The notes beneath the pieces were generated by a model, which ran no database searches, was not told the DNA's origin, and saw nothing but the letters and a program-made list of their open reading frames with translations. The position numbers and the translations under genes were made by a program. From Camelus dromedarius (taxonomy: Eukaryota): a stretch of DNA of 64,000 nucleotides. The DNA lies in assembly GCF_036321535.1 (NCBI RefSeq), contig NC_087436.1:40364001-40428000 (forward strand), given 5' to 3'. Positions 7,350 through 51,662 of this stretch are shown piece by piece; position 1 is the stretch's first letter; every line of letters starts with the position of its first letter.

Positions 7350-10300
7350 TTTTTAAAATTAATACAATTTATTTTTTAGGGCAGTTTTAGGTTCACAGCA
7401 AAACTGAGTGGCAAGTACAGAGTTCCAAAATATTCGTGTACAAACTTTCCCACTATCAACTTCCCACACCACAGTGGTATTTTGCTACAGTTGATGAATT
7501 TACACTGACATAATCACAAGAGGTCTATAGTTGACCTTGGTATTTATTCTTGGTGTTTTACATTCTATGAATTTGGACAAATGCATAATGAAATATATGT
7601 ACCATTATAGTATTTCACTGCTTTAAAAATTCTCTGTACTCCTCCTATTTATTCCTAGCTCTGTAAACTTTAGAATTAGTTTGCTGGTATCTGTAAAGTA
7701 GCTGGCTGGCTTACTTGGGATTGCATTTAATCTACACAGCAAATTGGTAAGTACTAACATCTTGACAATATTGAGTCTTCCTTTCCATGAACATGGATTA
7801 TTTCTCCATTTATTTAATTGTATGATTTTTTTCATTAGACTTTTGTAGTTTTTCTCATGTAGATCGTGTACATATTTTGTTAAACTTAACCTTAAGTAGT
7901 TCATAGATTTTCATCCTAATGTAAGTGGAATTGTGATTAAATTTCAGATTCTACTGTTCATTGCTTTTATGTAGAAAAATGATGGGGTATTGTATATTAA
8001 TCTGGTATCCTGCAGATAATTGCTGTAATTGCTTATTGGTTCTAGGAATTATTGTCAATTTTTTTGGATTTTCTACATAAATGATTGTGTCATCTGTGAA
8101 CAAGACAATTTTATTTCTTCTTCCCAATCTGTATACTTTTTATTTCCTTTTATTGCCTTTCTCCATTAGCAAGGAAATCCAGTACAATGTGGAAAATGAG
8201 TGGTCAGAGGGGACATCGTTGCTTTGTCCTTGTCTTTGTCGGAGGTCTCAAGTTTCTCACCATTAACTATGATGTTAGTTGTAGGTTTTTTGTAAATAAT
8301 CTTTATCAAGTTGAGAAAATTCCCCTCATTATTGGTTTACTGAGAGTTTTAATCAGGAATGGATGTTTGATTTTGTCAAATTCTTTTTCTGCATCCATTG
8401 ATACAATCATGTGGTTCTTTGTTCGTCTGTTGATGTGAGGGATTATACTAATTGGTGTTCAAATATTGAACCAGCCTTGTAAACCTGGGACAAATCACAG
8501 TTGGTCATGGTGTATAAATATTTTTATACATTGTTAAATTCAATTTACTAATGTATTTTTGAGAATTTTGCATCTTTGTTTATGAGAAAAATTGTACTAT
8601 AGTTTTTCTTTTTTAATGTCTATTTCTGATTTTAGTACTAGGATAATGCTATCCTCATGGAATGAGGTATAAAGTATTTCTTCTGCTTCTATTCTCTGAA
8701 AGAGATAGTATTGGTATAATTTCTCTTTTACATGTTTAGTAGAATTTATCAGTGAACCCATTTGGCCTGGTGCTTTCTGTTTTGGAAGGTTGTTAATTAT
8801 TTATTCAGTTTAATAGATATAGGCTATTTAGATTGTGTATGTCTTCTTATGTAAGTTTTAGAAGATTATTTTTTAATTTATTTTCGCTGAAAGTAATTTT
8901 TAATATCTCTTGAGATTTATTCTTTTACCAACGTGTTATTTAGAAGTATATTGTTTAATATCCAAGTATTTGGCGATTTTCCAGTTATCTATCTGTTACT
9001 GAATCCTGGCTTAATTCCATTGTGGTCTGAAAGCAGACATTGCAAAATTTCTCTTTTAAGTTTAAGGTGTGTTTTATAGCCCAGAATGTGGTCTGTCTTG
9101 TTGAAAGTTACATATTAGCTTGAGAAGTATGTGTATTCTGCTGTTGTTGGATGAAATTTTCTCTGATGTCAATTATATCCAGTTGATTGATGTTGTTATT
9201 GAGTTCATCTATGTTTTTACTGATTTTCTGTCTGCTGTATCTTTCAATTTCAATAGAATGGTGTTGAAGTCTCCACCTATGTTAGTGAATGCATCTGTTT
9301 CTCCTTGTAGTTCTATAGTTTTTGCCTCATGTATTTTGACATTCTGCTTTTAGGTGTATACACATTACAGAATAAGTCTTCTTGGAGAATTGACCGTCTT
9401 TATTATATGTAATACTCTTTATCCTTGATAACTTTCCTTGCTTTGAAGTCTTCTCTTTCTGAAATTATACAGCCTCTCCTGCTTACACCTAATTGATCTT
9501 CACATGGTATTTTTCTCCCATCTATTTACTTTTAATCTATATGTCTTTATATTTAAAGTGAGTTTCTCGCATCCAACATATGGTTACCTGTTGTTTTTTG
9601 ATCTACTCTGACAATCTCTTTTAATTGGCACATTTAGACCATGGATATTCAAAGTGATTATAGATAATGCTGGATTAGTATATATTATACTTTTTTACTG
9701 TTTTCTATTTGTTTTGTTTTGTTTTCTTTTTGTCTTTCATACTTTTTGTATCTTTGTGGTGTTAATTGAGCATAATTATACCATTATTTATAAATACATT
9801 ATATAAAATGGAATTATACTATTCCATTTTCTCTCCTTTATTAGCATATTAATTATACTTACCTTTTTGAATTTTTTTTTAGTGATTGTCCTGGAGTTTG
9901 CAGCATATACTTACAGTTAATTCAAATCTCTTTTAAATAACACTATACTACTACACAGGCAGTGTATCTTACAATAACAAAATAATTCTAAGTGTCCTCC
10001 CCATCCCCTTTGTCATTTCTCCCATTCATTTCACTTATATCTAAACATACATAAGCATATATGTATACATGTACATATATGTGTATATAACCATGAGCAT
10101 AAATAATGGAATACATTGTTGCTTTTATCATTTTGAAGAAACTCATCTGTTAGATCATTACCTCAATTAAGAACTTTTTAAAAGCTTTTATTTTACCTTC
10201 ACCTAATCTTTCAGTGCTTTTTCTTTCTTTATGTTGTTCCAAGTCTCTGATCTATATTATTTTTCTCCTCTCTAAAGGAACTTCTTTTAATATTTTTTTC

Positions 10301-12155
10301 CAAGTAGGTTTACTAGAAACATATTTCCTTACTTTTTGTCTGTTTGAGAAAGTCTTTGTTTTTCCTTCTCTTTTAACACATGATTTTGCAGGATACAGAA
10401 GTCTAGGTTAATGGGGTTTCTTTTCTTTCAGCCCTTTAAATATTTCTCACTCTCTACTCAGTTGCATGGTTTCTGGGGAGAAGTCAGATGTAATTCTTAG
10501 CTTTGTTTCTCTATAGGTAATTTGGGGTATTTTTCCCTCTGCCTTCTTTCAGGATTTTTCTTTATCTTTGATTTTACATGTTTTCAAAACTATAGTCCAC
10601 GGTATTTTTTGTTTGTTTGTTTTTGACATTTATCCTGCTTGTTACTCTTTGAGCTTTCTGAATCTGTTGTTTGGTATCTGAAATTAAATTGTGGAAATTC
10701 TCAGTGATTATTGTTTCAAATATCTCTTGTTTGTTTTGTTTTTCTTCTCTTTCTGGTGTTTTCATTATGGATATATTACATCTTTTGTAGTTTCTCAAAG
10801 TCCTTGAATATTCTTGTGGTTTTTTTTTTTTCAATTTTTGTCCTCTATCCTTTTCAGTTTTCAAGATTTCTAGATACCTTCAAGCTCAGAGGTCCTTTTC
10901 TCAGCCTTGTCCAGTCTACTAATAAGCCCATCAGAGCATTCTTCATTTCTGTTATAGTATTTGGGATCTCTAAAATTTTTTTTTTTTAGTTATTTCTTAG
11001 GATTTTCATCTCTCAGCTTACACTGCACATCTATTTTTGCATGGTTTCTACATACTCATTAGTGACCTTAACATAATAATCATAGTTGTTTTAAGTTCTT
11101 GGTCTGATAATTCCAACATCTCTCTCATGTCTGTTTCTGATGCTTGCTCTGGGTCTTCAAATTGTTGCCTTTTGCTGTGCCTTGTAATTTTTTCTTGAGA
11201 GCTAGATGTGCTGTTCTGAGTAAAAGAAACTGCCAACTTCCTAGTATGGTAATTCTGACATTTCTGCCATGCCTGACTCTGGTTTTCATGTTTGTCCAGG
11301 TTCTTCAAACTATGTTTTTTGCCTTTTAATATGCTTCGTATTTGTTCTTGTTGTTGTTGTTGAAAGGTGTATATGATAACCTGGGTAAGTGAATCTTTGT
11401 AAGTAGCCATGGGAAGGTAGTGGAATGAGAAATCATTCTGTAGTCCTGTAACTTTTGGTGAGTCCCTGAACTGTGAACTTCACCAGTGCCTCTCAACTTC
11501 TCCCCCATCCCCTCTATGTGGGATAGGATAACTAGAGAGGGCTGCAGCTGGGCATTTTCCTTTCCTCGTGTGGAACATTAGAGCCAGCTGGAGTTGGGTA
11601 TTACCATGCCCCAGCGGTTCAGGTTCTAATAGAATGCCAGCACGTTGGGCTCTGGTAAAATTGCTCCTCCTGAGGGCTGGCTTTGTAAAGAGAAACAGAA
11701 TTCTCTAGAATATTTCAAAATGGTTTCTTTTCCCCTCCCCCTGCCAGATGCATGAGGCTTTTCTCCAGTATTTACTGTGAGGAGCTGTAGAATTCCTGGG
11801 GGTAAAAATTGCTACGTGGAGGTAAAAATCCTGCAATGACTGGATCCCCTTGGATATTTTAACTCTCAAACTTGTCCTGACTGAGCCTCCAGAAATTTTT
11901 CGATTATGGTTAGCTTTCCCAACCCACACGGCGCTTACTGCAGAAATTGCTGCCCTGATTAGTTGTAATGCTCTGTGTCTGCTTGTCTGTCCCTCCAACT
12001 TGAAGGACAGTGGTTTGCCCTGAAACTTCAGTTCTCTAACAGCTCTAAGGAGAAACTGTTGATTTTTTTCTAGTTTTTTCAGCTTTTTCTTGTTAGGAAA
12101 GAATTATGACTTCTAAGCTCCTTATCTGCTGCATGACTGAAAACCAGAAGTCAGA
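7350..12155 (-). mobile_element. Ancient L1 (L1MC-like), near end-to-end with internal deletions
   Basis: 3'UTR at ~7350-7655. ORF2 remnants include LNKWRNNPCSWKGRLNIVKM at 7623-7904 and RT/EN-like DNA to ~9670. ORF1 remnants are EIFETIITENFHNLISDTKQQIQKAQR (10574-10864) and EMLELSDQELKTTMIIMLRSL (11048-11410). A 5'UTR-like region runs to ~12150. Confidence 0.85.
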
Positions 12156-15100
12156 TAGTTTATTTTTTAAGTTGGGAAAAAGAAAAGTTTGTTTGAACAG
12201 TGTAGAAAAAGTGCAATAGATAGAAAAAAAATGGTGATTCAAGATAATCCTTGAACTAAATATTTGAGTAATGACTTGAGGTCGATTGTAGGGTACAATT
12301 GGGTTTATCGATTAATAATTTGCATTGTATCTTTTTGAGTTCTTAAAGTATTAACTTCTCTGCCAATGCATTTAGAATGATTCATATTGGAATTTAAATG
12401 CTGAGTTGTATTGTATATCTTACATTCTTTACATAAAAATGGTTGCTTTGAAATTAGAATGCACATTTTTTTTTTCTTTTTACTGTGATAAACTATTTGT
12501 CTCTTTACACAAAACATTTTCTGCTCTTGGAAAATTAAAAATATATTTCTGTTGTTTCCTTTTTATAAATAATTTTATAGTAAAAGGAGTGTAGGATGAT
12601 TTTTAAAAATTATTTATTGATGATCCATTGCTACCTTTAGCATTTTGTTCATCTTTGAGAATTTTAGCTTGATTTATTAAGGAACATTAACTCATGCAAA
12701 TAAACCCAATACTTAAAAGAACAATTCATTGGGTTTCATATATTTCTAAAGGTCTTCTTACTTCACCAATTTATCATTTCTTAGAAAAAAATAAGTAATA
12801 TCTTTTAAAATCAAGGGAATTGGAAAATATTCATGTAAAAACTGACTTCTGTGATTCATTTTATCTCTTATATGGAATAAAAAAGAAAAAATGTGAGTAA
12901 TAAGAGAACACTACATCAATACATTTTTTTTCTTTACAAGGTTGATGCTAGAATTACTTAAAAGAAATACAATTAAACCATAATTTTATTTCAAAGTTGA
13001 CTTATCTCTATAGCTCACATGATAAGATTTGTCAAATCCATACTGTAGAAAACTACTAAAGAATAAATTTGAAAAGAGTGAGACAACAATCAAAGAGGAC
13101 AGATAAATACACATTTTTCATAACACCAACCTTTTCATAGGTCTTGGGTTCCTGCTCTTGGATCGCATGTTTTTTCCTTGTGAAAAATGCAATGAACTTT
13201 TTCATTTATTTCTGAAATCATTCCAAATCAATGAATTGTACATTCCCTATATTCTGGGCAATTTTATACCATTTATGAAATGATGAATAGGAAGTGATCT
13301 CTGCTCTTCCAAAACTCAGATAAGGGCTTGCCTTTCAAACTCATATTATTTCTGACACATAACTCTTACTTTTACTATTTGTATGCTAGGTTGTCTTGAT
13401 CAACTCTAATGCTGAAAACAATTTGTAAAGGTGAAAATTAGTTAAGGAAATGTGCTCTATGAGATTAGAAAGCTGCCAATGAAGTGTGGAATTGGGGCTC
13501 AAATCCATGACAGCAGAGAGGGAGCCAGATATTAGCTGTGATTCCTTCCTACAGGCAAACATTCCCAGAAGGTTTGGTAATTTTAACAGCTTTGGTTGAG
13601 AAGCTAAAAACCTGAGCAGAGCTTTTGACAGATCTGAGGAACACAAATTAGAATTTAGGATCTACTAAGGAGTAAGGCCTCTGGAAAATACTCTGTTTTA
13701 GTTGGTCCCCTAGCACTACAGCTGAACTGGAAATAGATTAATTTTTCAGGGTCAGAAGTCAGCTTTAAATTATCTCCATATCTTATTGAATTAAGACAAA
13801 ACTAGTGTCTCTAAATTAAGTGCCTATTAGAAGAAAAGAAAATTAATATTGGGATGCAAAGAGTATCATACCAAGTTTCAACCATCAAGAAAACTTTTAT
13901 GTAAAATATCCAGTACACAATTAAAACTTCTCACTCATGCGAAAGTATGAGTCATGACAGAAAAATAAGAGAAAAAAAGAGATAGTAGGAACATGGCTCT
14001 TTTTCTGTTCTTTTAAGTATTGGGTTTATTTATGTGAGTTATTATTCTTTACTAAATCAAGCTGAAATTCTTGAAGATAAAAAAATGCTAATAATTAGGA
14101 TTAATCAGATACTTCAAGGTTATTATATTCAAGCAGTGAAAGTTACAAAGTTGAAATTCCAAGAAAGAACTGACAATTATAAGAGTAATTAAATGGAGAC
14201 CTTTGAAATGGAAAAAAAAAAAACACAATAAAATCAATTCTGCAAAGAGAATTTCACTTCTGCTTGGGATACAAGTGTATACGTTATCCTTCATGCTTAG
14301 GGTAAGACAAAGAAAAAGTCACATAAAGTGGTGGGTGAATCAGAGTCTTCATGACTGATCTGCAGCGGGCAGAGCCTTTCACAGATGAGTAGCAAGTCAT
14401 CTTAGTTTAGATGCTAGGTGTATGTGCTGGAGAAGCAGGGACTATCTTGCCAAAGACTTCAAGAGTTCATTGTGTCTAGAAGAGGCAAGTGAGATACTAT
14501 GAAAAGAGAAAGAATAAATACAATAAATGGTAAAGTGTAAACCTGTTTTTCACTTTCCAGTACTTGCTACATAGATATTAAAAGTCTTCTGCTTATAACA
14601 AATGGTTTATATTTCTAGTAATTCTCTATTGTAAAGCTAGGATCCTGCAATGGGAATGCATTGCCAGAGCGCAGTTTACAGACTTGGTTCTCCGAAGGGC
14701 AAGAGGAAAAAACACAGAAACGAATAATATTAAGAATAAAACCAAACATCTTAGTGAATAAAGGAAGAAAACTAAGTGACTGCTCTCTTCTACCAGTAAC
14801 ACCAGCTGGGAGAGCTGTACTCTGTGCCCGGGAAACCCACACTATCTAATTGTTTTAGAAAGAAAAATTAATGTATTTACCAAAAAGGCTACAGTATGCA
14901 ATTCATTTCCAAGTCTCCTGGGGTAGTTACTCTGGTGCTTTTCACAAGTTGTGTTATGGTTTAACTATTTCTTTGTGTCTAGATTGAATTGTTTCCAAAA
15001 CAAAGCGCTTAACCTATGTAAAATCATCATTTAAAATTAATAATTCACAGGCAGAAACCAAGGTTTGCTGAACTTGAAAATTTTGTTTTTCTAAGCAATG

Positions 15101-15403: not shown

Positions 15404-15791
15404 TGTTACAGACTCAATGGCGTTCTCTCCAAATACGTATGTCAAAGTCTTAACCCCAAACATGATTGTATTTCAAGTCAGGGCCTTTAGGAAGACCGTT
15501 TGGGTTAAATGAAGTCATAAGGGAGAAGCCTTGACCTGATAGAATTAGTGTCCTTAAGTGAAGAGAAACACCAGAGTTCTTCCTCTCTGCACTTGTGCAC
15601 AAGGATAGGCTATGTGAGGAGCAGCCAGAAGGCAGCTTTCTATAAGCCGGAAAGACAGGAGTCCCCAAATCCAACCCTGCATTACCTTGATCTTGGACTT
15701 CCAGCCCTCAGACTGTGAGAAAATAAATTTTTATTGTTTATGCCTCTCAGTCTATGGTATTTTGTTCTGGCAGCTCTAACAGTCTAATAGA
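15404..15791 (+). mobile_element. MaLR solo LTR (MLT1A/B-like)
   Basis: tgttacagact...accttgatcttggacttccagccctcagactgtgagaaaataaattt...cagtctatggtattttgtt...ctaataga. Confidence 0.85.
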
Positions 15792-26514: not shown

Positions 26515-27012
26515 TGATATCACTTATATGTGGAATCTAAAAAAAAAAAAATGACATGAACTTATTTACAAAACAAAAACAGACTCACAGACATTAAAAA
26601 ACAAACTTATAGCTACTAGGGGGAAAGAGGTGGGGAGGGATAGATTGGGAGTTGGAGATTTGCATATACTAACTACTATATATAAAATAGATAACAACAG
26701 GAAATTATATTCAATGTCTTGTAATAACATACAATGGAAAGTATATTCAATGTATACTACTGTATAGTACAGGAAACTATATTCAATGTCTTGTAATAAC
26801 ATACAATGGAAAAGAATATGAAACTATATTACAGGACTGTATAGTACAGGAAACTATATTCAATGTCTTGTAATAACATACAATGGAAAAGAATATGAAA
26901 AGGTACATATATATGAATATATGTATAACTGAATCACTATGCTGTACATCAGAAACTAACACAACATTGTAAATTGACTATACTTCAATTAAATTTTTTT
27001 AAAAATTAAAAA
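26515..27012 (+). mobile_element. Cetartiodactyl-type L1 3'UTR with internal triplication
   Basis: gatatcacttatatgtggaatctaaaaaa...gaacttatttacaaaacaaaaacagactcacagac...ctatacttcaatt + A-rich tail. Homologous to 47530-47900 in this window. Confidence 0.88.
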
Positions 27013-28062: not shown

Positions 28063-29544
28063 GGTGTCTGTAACATTGAATTAACATCTGAGTTTGCCAC
28101 TGAAAAGCTCAGATAAAAAAAATTCTGACATCAGAGTAAAATAATAAAATTTTAGCACTGTAGTTTCACTGACAGAGTCAGAGATGATATTAAATAGTAA
28201 TAAAAGTGCAATAAAGAACAAAAGCCATTCCTTGCTTTTTAATAGCAGTTACTAACCTGCATTGTTCTCTTCTCCAATGAGGCAGCTAGCTCCCTAACTG
28301 CCGGTTGAGACTAACAGTTTCTTGACTTTATCCTAATCTCGTGTAGATAACATTCTAGACATGTACACTTGAGTCAACCTCACTAATTTTTTAATGAAAT
28401 TTCTTATTTAAGAATATTTTTACATTTACTGAAACTTGTCAAGGCAGTTCAGAGTTTTCTCATATACTCCGTATTTGGTTTACCCTAGTACTAACACCTT
28501 ACCTTGCTGTTCTACGTTTGTCACACTTGGGAGGTATTAATGAAATAATATTGTTAACCAAAGTTCATGCTTTATTTAGATTTCCTTGGTTTTTATCTGA
28601 GGTCCATTTTTTTTTTCTGTCTCTAATACTTCATTACATTTAGTCTTTGTGTCTCCTTAGAATTCCCTGGGCTGTAAATATTTCTCTGATTTTCCTTGTT
28701 GTGATGGCCTTGACAGTTTTGAGGAGTACTAGCTCGGTATTATGAGGTATTGTTTATTCATATTTGTCTGATGTTTTTCTGATGATTAGACTGAGGTCAT
28801 GGGTTTTGAAGAGAACAACTACAGGGGTGAGTTGTCACATCCATCACATCATTGCAGGGTACATAGCATCATCACTGGTGATGCTCCCTCCGTCACCTGG
28901 CTGAGACGGTGTCTGGTGGGTTTCTCCCGTATCAGAGTTACTCTTCTCCTCCATTTGCAGTCTGTACTCTTTGGAGGGAAGTCACTCTGCACAGCCCACA
29001 CTTAAGGAGTAGGGGGTTATACTCTCTTTTCTTGAGGGGATGTATCTACATAAATTATTTGAAATTTCTCTGGAGAGCATTTCTATATTTCCCCCTCATT
29101 TATTTATTTATTCAATGATTTATTTATATCCAAGTGGATTCTTGTTCATTTACTTTAACCCTTGTATTGTAGTATAATACTATGTTTATATTCTTGTAAA
29201 AATTTTTCCAGTTTTGACCATTGAGAACTCTTTTGGTTGGCTGTGGTGTCCTTTTGACATATACTCATTGTTTTTGTTGGTTGGTTTGTTTTATTTTGAG
29301 CACTTTCTTGCTTTACATACTATAAGGTGCTCCAGATTCATCTTGTATATTCCCTGCCCTAGTCTTTGAATCAGCCATTTCTCTAAGGACCACTTGTTCC
29401 TTTTATAGGAGATTGGTTTTAGAAAACAGGAGCTGGAGGCTTCACCCAGTTGTATTTGCTGCCACTTTGGTGTCATTGCTTTTGAATATTAAATGAGTAA
29501 CTATCTGCATGTGTACATATATGCTATGGACTAAATGTTGCATT

Positions 29545-32500
29545 TTATTTTATTTTACATTTTTTAATTGAGTAATAGTTACTTTACAATGTTGTGTCAA
29601 ATTCTAGTGTAGAGCACAATTTTCAGTCATACATGAACATGTATATATTCATTGTCACATTTTTTTTCACTATGAGCTACCACAAGATCTTGTATATTTT
29701 TCCCTGTGCTATACAGTATAATCTTGTTTATCTATTCTGCATTTTAAAATCCCAGTCTGTGCCTTCCCACCCCCAGCCCCCTTGGCAACCACAAGTTTGT
29801 ATTCTATGTCTATGAGTCTGTTTCTGTTTTGTATTTATGTTTTTTGGTTTTGTTTTTTGTTTTTTTAGATTCCTCATATAAGTGATCTCATATTGTATTT
29901 TTCTTCCTCCTTCTGGCTTACTTCACTTAGAATGACATTCTCCAGGAACATCCATGTTGCTGCAAGTGGTGTTATGTTGTCAGTTTTTGTGGCTGAATAG
30001 TATTCCATCATATAAATATACCACTTCTTCTTTATTCAGTCATCTGTTGATGGACATCTAGGCTGCTTCCATGTCTTGGCTATTGTAAATAGTGCTGCTA
30101 TGAACATTGGGGTGCAGGTGTCTTTTTGAAGTAGGGTTCCTTCTGGATATATGTCCAGGAGTGGGATTCCTGGGTCCTATGGTAAGTCTATTCCTAGTCT
30201 TCTGAGGAATCTCCATACTGTTTTCCACAGTGGCTTTCCTTGCTTCTCTCTCTCACTCTTAATGATTTAGATGTCTTCTTTTACAATTTTGTGTTTATTC
30301 TTTTTGTAATTCATGGCAGTTATCTCCTTTCCAGTTATGAGTTTCTCATTTTTGTAGCATCCTGCTTCTTTTCTATTTAGAGTAGACTTGTCAATATTTC
30401 TTTTAGCATGGGTTTAGTGTTGCTAAACTCTTTGAGTTTTTGCTTGTCTGTGAAGTTCTTTCTCTCTCCTTCTATTCTAAAGGATAGCCTTGCTGGATAA
30501 AGCATCCTAGGCTGCATCTTTTTTTCATTCAGGACTTTGAATATATCTTGCCACTCCCTTCTGGCCTGTTGTGTTTGTGTAGAGAAATCAGCTGAGAGCC
30601 TTATGGGCGTTCCCTTGTAACTCACTCTTTGTTTTTCTCTTGCTGCCTTTAGGATCATTTCTTTTCCTTGACTCTGGCCATCTTGATTATGATATGTCTT
30701 GGTGTGGGTCTGTTTGGGTTCTTCCTGTTTGGGACCCTCTGAACCTCCTGTACTTGGATATCTGATTGCTTTAGGTTTGGGGAGTTTTCAGTCATGATTT
30801 CTCAAATACCTTTTCAATCCCCTTTGTTTTTTCTTCCCCTTCTGGAACCCCTATTATGTGTAGATTGGCATGCTTTATATTATCCCATAGGTCCCTTATA
30901 TTGTTTTCATTATTTTTTACTTGTTTTTCTCTCAGCTGTTCTGATTGGGTGCTTTCTGTTGTCCTGTCTTCTAGGGCGCTTATTCGTTCCTCTGAATTAT
31001 CTAGCCTGCTTTACATAGACTTTAGGTGAACTCTCATCTCAGCAAATGTGTTTACTAATTCTACTTGGTTCTTCTTTATAGATTCTATTTCATTTCTGAC
31101 GTATTTTATATCTCTTAAACACTGTTTCTTTTAGTTCCTTCAGTACTTTGATCAGACCTTTTTTGAAATCTTGATGTAGTAGGCCATCAATGTCTATTTC
31201 CTTGGTCGTGCTTTCAGGGGATTTCTCTTGATCTTTTAATTGGGAGTGGTTCCTCTGCTTCTTCGTATTGCTCATATCTCTCTGGCACTGTGGCTTAAGT
31301 ATCAGTTATGTAGCTCTCTTGGAGATGGTGTGATCTTAATGACTTTATCAAGAGGTCTTTGTGTCTTCACTGTTTCGCAAACTCAGCTTGCTGTTTCCAG
31401 AGGCCCTCTGTTGGTGCCCTTGTCTGTGCTGCTCCCAGTGGCTGTCGGCTAGCAGATCGTGCCCCCTCCTAACACTGGGTCAGGAGCTGAGCTCTTACCC
31501 GGTGGGCGGTGGGTCACTCCCCCATCCCGATGCCACAGTCAGATGCTGCGCTCTTGGGTAGGCAGGTGGGTGGATCGTGCCCCCTCCCAGCACTGTGGTC
31601 AGGTGCTGCGTTCCTGCCAGGAAGAGGGGTGGCGCCCGCCCTCTCCTGGCACTGGTCTCTCCGCTGCTCTGTGCAGCTGCCCGCTCTGCCTCGGGTTGAC
31701 GCTCCAATGGTGGGGTCAGGGAAGACCGCGGAACGGTCCTGCCCCTGCTCTGTGCCAAATCTCAGCTTCTTGTTTGTCTTGGTGGTGCATGTTCTCTGAG
31801 GTGCCAGGGCAGAAAGATCTTATCTGTCTCAGGCTGTAAACAATTCTCAGTCCTGCCTAGGAGGTTGCTGAGCCCCTGGGTGTGGATTCAGGTCTCGGCC
31901 CCGCCCCCGCCCAGGCACTGCTCACAGGAAGAGATGGTGGCTGTGGCTGCACGCCGCCTCTCTCCTCGCAAGATGCGCCAGTAATGGCGGAGCAGGTCTG
32001 AGGATACAAAGGCTATGGCGCCCCTACCCCCAGGGCACACCAGCCATGTTACTTTGCATTTTTTGCAATTTATGGGTGACCGAGGTTGTTCTGCTCTGTA
32101 TCCCCTCCATGCCACAGCGCACAGCACCCTGCAGTCCCCCTGGGCTGCTGCAGTGCAGCCGCCCCAGTCCTCCGCCCGGCTCGGGCGGCCAGTCCCAGCC
32201 CCAGCTGCTGGCTCGCACCTCGGGCTGGGTGTCGTGGGGACCCTTTGTGCCTGTTTAACTCAGTTCTGTTGGTCAGGGGGTGCTCGGGGCAGATCTGAGC
32301 CTCAGAGGCTCTCCCTCTGTTCCGCTGGCCTCTCCATTGGAGAAGGGGGACCCAGCGAATGAGCGCCAGTCCTCCTTTGCCTCTCCATCCCCGTGAGACT
32401 GGTCCCACACTGTTTTTCTTTTTCTTCTTTCTATTTTCCTTTTCTCCTACTAGATTTTTGGTGTCTTTATCTTTTGAAGAGGGCGATGTTCTGTCGGAGT

Positions 32501-32612
32501 TTGGCAGGTGCTCTGGTTGGCTGAGTAGATCCGTAGATGTAAGTTTTGGTGTATTTGTGGGAGAGGGTGAGCTACAAGCGCCTTCTACTCTGCCATCTTG
32601 TTTCTCTCTCCC
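29545..32612 (-). mobile_element. Relatively young L1 with full 5'UTR, disrupted ORF1 and 3' end, lacking almost all of ORF2
   Basis: The minus strand begins GGGAGAGAGAAACAAGATGGCAGAGTAG (YY1-type CAAGATGGC), followed by a CpG-rich 5'UTR. ORF1 pieces are at 31275-31090 and 30658-30377. The ORF2 C-terminal tail, 3'UTR and T-rich tail occupy 30233-29545. TSD-like ggactaaatgtt (29528-29539) / ggattaaatgtt (32613-32624). Confidence 0.92.
30377..31275 (-). pseudogene. L1 ORF1p, frameshifted and with stops
   Basis: N-terminus MSNTKKQRNHSQLKDQEKSPE...DFKKGLIKVLKELKE and C-terminal domain ILKAAREKQRVSYKGTPIRLSADFS...ARREWQDIF...YPARLSF carry the conserved REKx, ARR and YPAxLS motifs of ORF1p, but lie in separate ORFs. 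Confidence 0.9.
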
Positions 32613-34490
32613 GGATTAAATGTTTGTATCCCCCTAAAATTCATATGTTTAAACCCTAATCCCCCACATGATAGTATTTGGATCTGACCTTTGGGAGGTA
32701 ATTTGGTTTAGATCAGGTCATGCAAGCAAGGCCCTCATGATGAGATCAGTGTCCCTGATAAGGAGACGAAGGAACCAGAGCTTTCTCTCTGCCATATGAG
32801 GATACAGTGAGAAAGCAATTTTCAGTGAATCAACTTAACCATGTTGGCACCTTGATCTTGGACTTCCAGACTCCAGAATGTTTAAGCCACTCAGTCTATG
32901 GTATTTTGTTATAGCAACTTGAATTGACTAAGACAATCTGTATCTGTATTTATATTGAATTGCACATGAGTTGATAGTGGTGACTCCAACTCTAGTCCAT
33001 AAACACATGGATCATTCTAGACTTGTCTTCTTGCTTATCTGTAAACTACCACTCCAATAGTGAGTAGCCTGCCCCACCATGTACCATCCATGTATTTATC
33101 TGGTAAATCTCAGTATGCATGTACAGTGATCGTACACCTTACCCCCTTGGGAAGCATTTACCAGCTAGAATGCAGTGACTATATGTATTTCCTTGTGTCT
33201 TTAGTCCTACAGTCTTTGCTCATTTCCCAAGTTACTTAGATCAGTTCCTCTCTGTTTACCCCCTTCAGTGATATTATGTTACACATTTGTAATAGAGTCA
33301 AATTCTTTTGTCACAGTCTGCATTCCTTCCTGGGATCCCCACATCTCATAATTGATTTTTTAAATTTGCATACACAAAGTTCATTCTTAGTGCTATGAGG
33401 ATTTCTATGAGTTTGTTTATCCATCTCTACAGTATCAAACAGATTAGTTTCACAGTCCTGTAAAGTCTCCTGTGCCTCACCATTCCAACTCCCTTCCTCT
33501 CCAAAACTCTGATTTGTTTTCCATAAATAGTTCTGCCTTTTTCAGTCACATGAATGGAATCATATGGTATGTTGCTTTTACAGACAGACTTACTTATAGT
33601 AATATTCATTTAAGATTCATCTGTGTTGTTTAGGTTAATGATTCATACCTTTTCTTTGCTCAGTAATATTTCCTTCTCTGAATGTACCATACTTCATGCA
33701 CTCACCTGTTAAAGGACATCTTTGTTGTTTTAAGTATTTATGATTATAAATAATGTTTCTATAAACATCTCTTTGTGAGTTTTTGTGTATTCTATAAATA
33801 TCTCTGTGTTAAGTTTTTTTAATCAGTTGGGTAAATACTTAAGAATGCCGTTGCTGACTTACATAGTAAGACTATGCTTGGCTTTATACAAAACTGCTAA
33901 ACTGTACTCCAAAATGGCTATACTGTTTTGCAGTCCCACTAGAGACAAATGGGAGTCTCTACTGCTCCTACCCTTGCCAGTAATTAGTATTGTCAGTTTT
34001 CTGGATTTTAGCCATTCTAATATACGTTTAGTAGTGTTGCTGTTGTTTTTATTTGCATTTCCCAAATGATATTGACCGTCTATTCATGTATTTATTTGTC
34101 TTCTGTATATTTTTGTGATGAAGTATCTGTTCAGATCTTTTGCAAATTAAAATTGTGTTCTTATTTTTAATGTTATGAGTGCTTTTTATATTCTGGATAG
34201 AACCCCTTTATCAGAATTCATCAATATTCTCTACCTGTCTGTGGCTTGTTTTTTATTCTCTTCACAGTCTTTTGCAGAGCAGAAAATTTTAATTTCAATA
34301 AAGTCCAAATTACCACATTTTCTTTTCCAGAGTCTGGATTTTGGTTTGGGATCAAAACTCATCAACAAATCCAAGGTCATATAGATTTCCTCCTGTGTTT
34401 TCTAGATGTTTTATACTTTTGCATTTTACATTTAGTCTTTAAATTCATTTTGAGTTAGTTTTTATAAAAGATGTAAAGTCTGTGTCCAGA

Positions 34491-46332: not shown

Positions 46333-46929
46333 TCACAAAGATTAATAGTAATACATTAGCATTATTTGGCTTCTAGGTTTTTTCTCTTTTAAAATACGCA
46401 AACCAATAAATAACAAACAAATAATTTGTAATATTTAGTCTGTATTTTAATGGACCAAAAAAAAAAAAAAAAACTTCCACCATTTCCTAGGGAGGAAGAC
46501 AGAGTTTAAATAGAAGAGCTAGGGACTTTTCCCAGATAAATCTCATAATTATATTGTCCATTGACTGCTGTATACATCCCTTTTGCCCATGTCTTGTATG
46601 AAAGTGTCTACTGCATTTTTCCTATTTCTTGAGTGTGTGGGAGCCAGACACCTTGTTTCCTTCCATTGCAAGTTTTCAAATGAAGAGTAAGTGTAACAAA
46701 GGAGAGGACCTAGAGAGCCCTTCTGTGCCTGGATCTAATTTAACTTAAATTCCTGGGTAATGAACTCAATCCTGTTGCTGTATTGGCAGGAGACTTTTGT
46801 TTGCATTGAAAGGATACAGTGTATATTTCATGTGAGAGGAAAGAAAATTTGCTGTCAAAAGAAAGAATATGGCTTTAAAAAATTTAGCCACAAATATCCT
46901 GGTACACTTCTTATTAAGAGGTGATGTCT

Positions 46930-47900
46930 AACAAAAAACCAAACAACCCAATCCAAAAATAGGCAGAAGACCTCAACAAGCAGTTCTCCAAAGAAGACAT
47001 ACAAATGGCCAATAAACACATGAAAAAATGCTCAATATCGCTGATTATCAGAGAAATGCAAAACTACAGTAATGTATCACCTCACTCCAGTCAGAATGGC
47101 CATAATTAAAAAGTCGACCAGCAGTAAATGCTGAACAGGGTGTGGGTGAAAAGTGAACACTCCTACACTGTTGGTGAGAATGTAGTTTGGTGCAGCCATT
47201 ATGGAAAACAGTATGGAGATTTCTCAAGAAACTAAAATTAGACTTACCATATCATCCAGCAATCCCACTCCTGGGCATATATCCAGAAGGTATTCTAATT
47301 CAACAAGATACATGCAACCCCAATGTTCACAGCAGCACTATTTACAATAGCCAAGACATGGAAACAACCTAAATGGCCATCGACAGATGACTGGATAAAG
47401 AAGTTGTGGTATATATATACAATGGAATACTACTCAGCCATAAAAAGGAATAAAATACTGCCATTTACAGCAACATGGATGGACCTGGAAATCATACATT
47501 CTAAGTGAAGTAAGCCAGAAAGAGAAGGAAAAATACCATAATACAGCAATCATATGTGGAATCTTAAAAAAATAAAAGACACAAATGAACTTATTTATAA
47601 AACAGAAACAGACTCACAGACATAGAAAACAAATCTATGGTTACCAGGGGGAAACGGAGGCAGGGAAGGGATAAATTAGGAGTTCGGGTTTTGCAAATAT
47701 TAACTACTACATATAAAGTAGATAAAGGACAAATTTCTTCTGTATAGCACAGGGAACTATATTCAACATCTTGTAGTAACCTATAATGAAAGAGAACAAG
47801 AAACGAATATATGTGTGTATATGTATGGCTGAAATATTATGCTGTACACCAGAAACTGACACAAGAGTGTAAACTGACTATACTTCAATTAAAAAAAAAA
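46930..47900 (+). mobile_element. 5'-truncated L1 (ORF2 C-terminus + 3'UTR + polyA) with 14-bp TSD
   Basis: ORF2 C-terminal peptides [32 protein letters not shown] and MFTAALFTIAKTWKQPKWPSTDDWIKKLWYIYTMEYYSAIK. Perfect TSD aagaggtgatgtct at 46916-46929 and 47901-47914. Confidence 0.95.
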
Positions 47901-50269
47901 AAGAGGTGATGTCTGTGTTCCCCACCCTCCCCCACCGCACTTTGCTCCACCTTGAAGTTAAAGTACCTGCTCTGACAATGAAAAGTATATGATGTATCTC
48001 CACTGCTGGGTCATGAAAGGCCATAAAGTTTCTGCCTTTTTTCACTAGAAAACTAGGTTGTAAGAGCCCATAGCCACTGTTCTGTGTCATTGCCAACACG
48101 TCACAGAGAGGCCCCATGCAGGCATTCTTGATAGACAGTCCCAGCTGAACATAGCCTTTGCCTCACAGTTTACTAGATGCTAGACAATGTGAATTTCATA
48201 TTGTTGAGGTGTGGATTTTTCTGGCAGGCAGGAAAGTTCCTTGCACAGCACCTTGATCATTTAAAGGCTTCTTGAAAACTGTGTGGGCAGGCATGAATTA
48301 GCTTTTTCCCTAGGGCAAGTTCAGCCTTACTATTGACTGTGACTCTTCTTAGATATCTACTGAGCATAGAGTCTCACAAGTGCTCCGAGAGTATTCTACC
48401 TTCTGACTTTTCCAAACTTCCAAGTCTCCTAGTCCTGTCTGAATTCTTGGAAATTTCGAATTTAGATTTCTCCTATTGTTCATTGCTTGGCTTCATGTAG
48501 TCTAACCTTATGCATGCAATACTTCGTATTAGAGGCAACTCTAGGGCATGTTCATGCAAATTTCTAAAGCACTCTAATCACCTAATGTTTTCTGCAAAAT
48601 TACTCAGCCCAGCAAGCTTCAGTGGCCTCAGCTTCTCCTAACTCCTCCTGTCTCACCTCAATTCAGCAAGACCTCTAGGCTCTTCTTGGGTTCCCCACCC
48701 TGTGCACAGTGGACTAGAAAGTGCATCCAGGCAAAAACTTGGGGCAATCGTGGGGCTCTCCTCACCTGTCTCCCTTCTTTCTTGTTTTCCAATATCTAGA
48801 AAACAGAAGCTACTTCATATAATTTGTCTAGTTTTTCAGTTATTTACAGTAGGAGTAGAAGTTCAATTGCAGTTACTACCTCATGGCCAAAAACAGAAAT
48901 CCCCATTTGAATCTAATACTTATTTGTACCAGAGGCATAAGTCTGGGCATAAATAAAGAATCCCCCCATATATTAAATGATATAATAATCATAGTAGTAG
49001 TCAAAATTTTAACATATTATATACATTTTGTCCTTTGTCAAATAGTGCCGTTAAATCTACTGAACGCAAACAGCATGTTGTATATTACTACAATACCGTT
49101 ACAGATTCCAATAATTTCAGAAATTTGACACATTTTTATATTTTTATGATGATGTTAATGTGAAATGAAACTAAAATTCAAATACATACACTATCATTCA
49201 TATAAAATGTATTTATTGCATGTTAAAAGATGGTTGGAAGGGGAAAACTATCCATTCATGGAAATGTTTTTGGTTGCAGATCCCACAACTGAATTTCCTC
49301 ACTTAAGTAGATAAGAAACTCCTGTTTCATTATTATAGTTTTTGCATATAATTTTGCTAACATTCACATCACAAAAATAGCTCCTTTTGTAAATGTTGAT
49401 TATCTCATTTCAAAGTTCTATATCAGTCTTCAGATTTCTCTTTGAAGGCAGAGCAATTTTCCTGTTCCGTGTTGCATGGTACCATAATCATTCCTGCTAG
49501 AGTTAAGGTTTGAACTTTGGAATTTACATTTCAGAAGAAGAAATGCTGCATAATTTAAGGAGCAAAGCCCACATTAAATTTAGAATACCTAGTTGCCTTT
49601 TATCACCGTTTCTCTGTGCTCTTTGCACTGACAAAAGATGCAGTCCGAACTGGGTAATTACTTTAAAGATGTTGAACGAAATACTCTGATCGATAGACAG
49701 TGTTCCTGCATTTCCTAAAAAATCGAAACAATTGTGTACAGAGTTTGTTGTAGAAAGTGTTCCGGTGTTAAGAAAAGCAACCGCATATTCTTCTCAAGTA
49801 AGAATTCTCTAGTTCTTGAAGAATTCCTTATTGGAGGGTTCACTTTTTTTTTAAAGGATCAGCTGCACAGTATTTTATTTGGTTTTTCCTGGCTGTTACT
49901 CAGTTCTTGCCTCTGACAACTCAATTTCGAGTGTTTTACGAGGTTAACTAAATCAGGGAGGAATTATAAATAGAGGTGCCAAATGAGGGTGTGAAGAAAT
50001 GAGGAACAAAATCAAACTTGAGGGCAGTTGGGAGGGAGGAAATAGTCAAAGAGAAGAGCGGTGCCTAGTGGGACGTGTTGAGTTTATTCAGGAAAGCACC
50101 CATCTCCTTTTTGAAAAATAATCATAATGTCAAATATAGAATTAATCAGTTTTCTTAGAGGCACAGACAATATGACTGTGATCATTTTGTGACATACTTA
50201 GTGAAGAACAACCAGAGTTGTACCGCTTTGTCCTGATGACTAAGGAAGTTGCCAGGGGCGAGTCATTCA

Positions 50270-51662
<1,393 letters not shown>

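Follow-up and report, generated by a model that had tools for sequence, protein, structure and literature searches.

The window analysed here, a stretch of 64,000 nucleotides of dromedary DNA, contains a dead camelid L1 on its minus strand at 32612-29540, a single insertion in which both ends, a TSD and ORF1 are present and almost all of ORF2 is missing. We favour, with a confidence somewhat above even, the reading that this gap is a one-off internal deletion, made without splicing at 1-2 nt of microhomology, the junction being assumed to be unique to this locus. Three other origins were weighed (a copy of a multi-copy ORF1-only family, an integrated spliced L1 mRNA, and a chimera or assembly collapse), and the weights given to all four are our judgement and were not computed.

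Results

In the sense of the element, the insertion starts directly after a 12-bp TSD copy (32613-32624, minus strand), which lies at the end of an older LTR-like repeat, presumably of the MLT1 type, with a relative at 15684-15775. It opens with a complete, GC-rich L1 5′UTR of about 1.34 kb (1,337 nt; 31276-32612, minus strand), whose first word, AAGATGGC, is the same word that opens pig L1 consensus sequences. This region holds an internal pair of 49-nt repeats (81.6% identity), and its CpG observed/expected ratio is 0.42 versus 0.20 in the window. Then follow, all on the minus strand, a disabled ORF1 (30377-31275, with its stop TAA at 30379-30377), the first 143 nt of a long inter-ORF spacer of the pig type (30234-30376), the junction (30233-30235), the last 122 codons and the stop of ORF2 (29865-30233; three internal stops, no indel) and a 3′UTR with an ATTAAA word and a decayed A-rich tail (29540-29864). 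The 3′ TSD copy (29539-29528, minus strand) differs from the 5′ copy (32624-32613) by one mismatch, and within the window the 12-mer, with up to one mismatch allowed, occurs only at these two places. The TSD with the A-rich 3′ tail and the three Pfam domains of ORF1 are features of mammalian LINE-1s, and insertion by target-primed reverse transcription is supported. Of the extent 29545-32612 given by the first-pass annotation, the 5′ end stands, and the 3′ end is corrected to about 29540.

ORF1 matches PF17489, PF02994 and PF17490 (trimer, RBD-like/RRM and dsRBD-like C-terminal domains) and is identical to the intact 300-aa ORF1 P0278 at 240 of 297 residues (81%). Relative to P0278, however, a codon is missing, one stop interrupts the frame, and the frame shifts three times, near 31116, 30802 and 30665. 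This copy thus has a dead ORF1, and the initial statement that the element had kept its promoter and ORF1 is correct in that both are present, but not in the sense of a working ORF1. A query with EN matched other L1s in the window and nothing inside the element, and there is no room for RT within it. The half-L1 structure first proposed (5′UTR, ORF1 and 3′ end, with EN and RT gone and a TSD present) is thus borne out by the alignments, the Pfam matches, the EN query and the TSD. It had been added that most of the ORF2 C-domain is absent; only the end of ORF2 is indeed left and, more precisely, it is the 122-codon segment that comes after the cysteine-rich knuckle.

Judged by its similarity to the long pig L1 spacer, the 143-nt segment between the ORF1 stop and the junction is a genuine L1 spacer, homologous to its pig counterpart. 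Its first 42 codons, read on from the end of ORF1, match the read-through ORF1 protein P0308, which is pig-like by its own ORF1 (E 2e-8, computed within the fetched protein set). An ATG in the spacer at 30314 opens a frame that continues into the ORF2 remnant, with a TAA at codon 16. Passages of PMC6501411 give pig L1 spacers of 390-529 bp, except in two subfamilies, and an ORF2 of about 3.8 kb. Since we took these pig lengths as a guide, the missing segment, comprising the remaining spacer and all of ORF2 except the final 122 codons, would measure about 3.7-3.8 kb. Because the camelid and pig long spacers are homologous, the long spacer in this lineage is likely to predate the pig-camel split; the part of PMC5381506 available to us inferred, in contrast, that the pig regained a long spacer independently. 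An old, decayed L1 elsewhere in the window (at about 7800-11400, minus strand) has an ORF1, a long spacer without similarity to the one studied here and the first part of ORF2. A 12-nt match between the junction flank and the EN region of that L1 (7.8-11.4 kb) was dismissed as chance (E 1.6).

On the minus strand the junction reads ...gaagcaaggaaAG joined to CCACTGTGG, between 30234 and 30233, and both this site and its distance of about 143 nt past the ORF1 stop were confirmed by reading the strand. An uninterrupted form of the ORF2 site is found in a 5′-truncated L1 of a related subfamily (46930-47900, plus strand), where CAG (47193-47195) directly precedes CCATTATGG. This comparison L1 is about 970 bp long and, with its perfect 14-bp TSD (46916-46929 and 47901-47914), spans 46916-47914. 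The 3′ part of the element aligns to its positions 47194-47896 with 77% identity, the alignment starting at the AG that both share. The break falls exactly on the codon boundary after the CAG, so that the join reads AAG/CCA where the intact site reads CAG/CCA. In the first-pass annotation an upstream side ending in AAG and a break right after CAG were listed together. Both sets of letters are there, but they count as a single observation, since the AG at 30235-30234 may come from the spacer as well as from ORF2.

The look of this join raised the reading of the first-pass annotation, namely that the element is an integrated spliced L1 mRNA, in which splicing linked a spacer donor to the CAG acceptor of ORF2 and the product was retrotransposed in trans, either once or as the founder of a family. 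We consider this improbable. When ORF1/spacer sequence was joined at random to the ORF2 tail in 400,000 simulated trials, an AG opened the ORF2 match in 8.7%; this AG belonged to a CAG in 4.3%, and the full AAG look appeared in 2.4%. The splice-like look is therefore uncommon without being rare and does speak for splicing, even with an AG that can be counted once and not twice. At the homologous pig ORF2 site, 30 of 46 motif matches also have CAG and the other 16 have CAA, and the AG at the end of the removed segment is seen in the comparison L1, which is one copy of a related subfamily. The surroundings of that acceptor are, however, poor in pyrimidines (7 of the 20 bases before the CAG), lacking the pyrimidine tract that is a feature of SpIREs, and its AG is outside the best 12 of the 46 AGs in that stretch.

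On the donor side, too, the evidence leans against splicing. Uninterrupted homologous spacers were represented by the pig, a distant proxy for camelids, as 17 exact matches to the spacer motif just upstream of the join in the consensus file of PMC6501411, a paper whose accessible text lists 51 L1 subfamilies. Each was compared with the element by eye and without gaps, offsets being counted from the AAATCAT motif. The element and the last of the 17 agree at 19 of the 28 bases after the shared motif, and at 11 of 12 within offsets 16-27. A GT donor-like word stands at offsets 19-20 in 12 of the 17 pig spacers and at 18-19 in the remaining 5, and this word survives in the element, with GC for GT, at 30243-30238, 9 nt upstream of the join. 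At the join itself (offsets 28-31) GT is present in 0 of the 17 pig consensus spacers, with one having GT at 32-33. Thus, of a GT start and an AG end of the gap, the AG was found in the one window copy, and the GT was not found in the pig proxy. Since the 12 in-register pig spacers have T at offset 28, the G that the element has there likely comes from the CAG of ORF2. The simplest reading of these letters would be that the spacer ends in ...GGAAA, with a 1-nt overlap on the A, and with the G drawn from ORF2 the removed segment would have non-canonical ends. A GT gained in camelids would amount to 2 or 3 adjacent base changes relative to the pig, placed exactly at the join, which is possible but not likely.

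Spliced L1 RNAs do integrate, complete with TSDs and tails, according to passages of the study of SpIREs by Larson et al. (2018, PMC5860796), which describe GT-AG splices that those authors call dead ends. Our element resembles a SpIRE in that it is an L1 with both ends, TSD and tail whose internal gap is precise and stops at an AG. It differs in what was lost: in the same passages the known SpIREs lack 5′UTR or 5′UTR/ORF1 sequence between GT and AG and retain ORF2, whereas here it is ORF2 that is gone, the homologous pig site has no GT, and the proxy leans against a GT start of the gap. An mRNA spliced in this way would, in addition, have needed ORF2p supplied in trans. On the proxy evidence of the pig spacers, together with the pyrimidine-poor acceptor and an AG look that arises by chance in 2-4% of joins, the proposed splice origin of the junction is disfavoured.

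The ORF2 remnant is of camelid type. Its best protein matches are dromedary L1 ORF2 gene models (for example KAB1262767.1 and KAB1253934.1), and across 20 such models identity is 79-86%, residues near the join being of the same subfamily type. In 16 of the 20 the PLW motif could be located, and these, in contrast to the element, carry normal ORF2 upstream of it; the peptide encoded by the spacer is in none of the 20. In accessible text of PMC6726744 the Repbase name of a camelid L1 is L1-2_Vpa. At 15 of its 122 positions, one of which is the junction codon, the remnant departs from the dromedary majority, compared with 5-14 in the stop-free gene models. Its decay would therefore seem not to go much beyond the age of the copy itself, as would be expected more of a one-off event or a short-lived master than of a master that persisted for long. 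The in-frame fusion of spacer and ORF2 was rejected as a functional product of this copy, in which the frame has four stops, and an in-frame join is expected by chance in 1 of 3 cases.

These counts bear on whether the element is one copy of a camelid HAL1-type family born by deletion, with a master that had lost ORF2, still had promoter and ORF1, and relied on the ORF2p of intact L1s for copying in trans. We hold this to be unlikely, although it comes second among the readings weighed. The element has the parts that such a master needs (promoter, ORF1, 3′UTR and tail), and a multi-copy family would be more easily met than a singleton. HAL1s arose several times in mammals according to passages of PMC5753468, and part of PMC6501411 mentions a pig subfamily, HAL1_Ssc, in Repbase. 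The lack of extra erosion in the ORF2 remnant counts against a long-lived non-coding master, but not against a short-lived one.

The junction has no second copy in the 64-kb window. In IMG/VR, a set with little or no camelid L1 DNA and hence weak on this point, 0 matches to the junction pattern were found, the ORF1 query gave no match, and none of 66 loci with the spacer motif resembled the element; the locus L071 is the 3′ part of an L1 whose overlap with the element is limited to the ORF2 tail. Metagenomes yielded three loci from 148 stretches, two of them L1s with a short spacer (L001, L002) and the third (L003) unrelated. The single locus from 72 in GTDB was attributed to chance, phages and plasmids gave no match, and in the supplement of PMC5381506 0 of 3 motifs matched.

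With the read-through frame as a protein query, 48,257 representatives passed E 0.001, and the top match starts at the junction codon. The spacer peptide is in none of the best 150 of the 48,257 matches, and in the best 120 of 8,000 scored candidates coverage of the read-through frame is at most 86%, both searches seeing only open, annotated frames. A search with residues 1-45 returned no candidate, and it was insensitive, because it missed P0002, which has six overlapping 5-mers in common with the query. Papers, as distinct from Repbase and Dfam, formed the scope of the literature search, and no camelid HAL1 family is described in those found, including the accessible portions of PMC8605555, PMC6726744 and PMC5203782.

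Some matches are mammalian L1 sequence in collections of other origin: L001, L002 and L071 come from metagenome and viral contig sets, and P0322, an L1 ORF1, figures as a hypothetical protein in the annotation of a bacterial MAG. Host contamination is the likely source of such entries.

A family could also have been founded by splicing, with a camelid-specific donor in the spacer used with an acceptor near the end of ORF2, the promoter kept and the product amplified in trans. Of all the scenarios considered here, this is the one that we least expect. Its master may have made a protein of roughly 149 aa, with the spacer peptide continuing in frame into the C-terminal segment of ORF2.

It is also very improbable that the two halves of the element come from two L1 molecules, through recombination between two copies or because a truncated cDNA was continued on a second L1 RNA as template, or that they were brought together by a collapse in the assembly. 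L1 does form chimeras with other RNAs, as reported in the available part of bioRxiv 2025.02.02.635956. But a single TSD frames both halves, both are camelid L1 with similar decay, and a collapse needs long shared sequence, where the join has 1-2 nt.

Besides L1s and the LTR-like repeats, the window contains an intronless TRAM1-like gene with a TLC domain (50582-51662, plus strand), which we take to be TRAM1L1. Near 50611 a run of about 16 C lies between its first ATG and the main ORF, which are in different reading frames, owing to a homopolymer error or to a genuine frameshift. In an L1 3′ end at 26697-26900 (plus strand) a unit of about 72 bp is duplicated in tandem with 91% identity, and an inverted pair of 87 bp (86% identity) lies at 12637-12723 and 14006-14091, about 1.3 kb apart.

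Discussion

The element is a real, ordinary-looking dead L1 with an internal gap. By the pig lengths, about 3.7 kb was likely lost in a single internal deletion, most probably at the time of insertion. On this view ORF2p would have been supplied in cis by an intact, full-length RNA, and the reverse transcriptase, after copying about 690 nt from the tail, would have left ORF2 out by jumping on the same RNA to the spacer. The 3′ piece that was kept (689 nt) is of the order of ordinary L1 truncation lengths, for which accessible text of bioRxiv 2024.08.27.596794 gives a median of 503 bp. L1 proteins favour their own RNA, as stated in a passage of PMC5860796, and for this reason an RNA already without ORF2 needs a supply in trans, whereas a jump on an intact RNA does not. 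A later deletion of the DNA by end-joining would leave the same trace and would be indistinguishable here. Such a non-inverted jump along the same RNA is put forward as a possible route, and the literature search returned no paper documenting one of this size.

Against a one-off deletion it must be said that the splice-like look is uncommon by chance and that the break is on a codon boundary after CAG. The pig is, moreover, a distant proxy, and camelids could have gained a GT. Compared with internally deleted or rearranged dead mammalian L1s, the element is alike in its two ends, TSD, A-rich tail, disabled ORFs and a join ambiguous by 1-2 nt, and no difference from them was shown. Its gap happens to take nearly all of ORF2, leaving the ORF2 tail in frame with the spacer ATG, in a frame that contains a stop.

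The element also resembles a HAL1. HAL1 (half-L1) families were reportedly the subject of Smit (1999) and of Bao and Jurka (2010). In passages of PMC5753468, PMC4859970 and PMC13756887, a HAL1 is a non-autonomous derivative of L1 that encodes only ORF1p and has several mammalian origins. Our element likewise has a 5′UTR with promoter, an ORF1, the hallmarks of retrotransposition and no ORF2 coding capacity, EN and RT being absent. A HAL1, however, is a multi-copy family, whereas the element is known here from one locus; its own ORF1 is dead, and it keeps, without extra erosion, a recognisable ORF2 tail of 122 codons.

As a one-off deleted fossil the element would carry little weight, since any mammalian genome should contain dead L1s with internal gaps. 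Recurrence of the junction would give the camelids a HAL1-type family. And if such a family exists and began by splicing, a spliced L1 would not be a dead end, and there would be a concrete route from L1 to HAL1.
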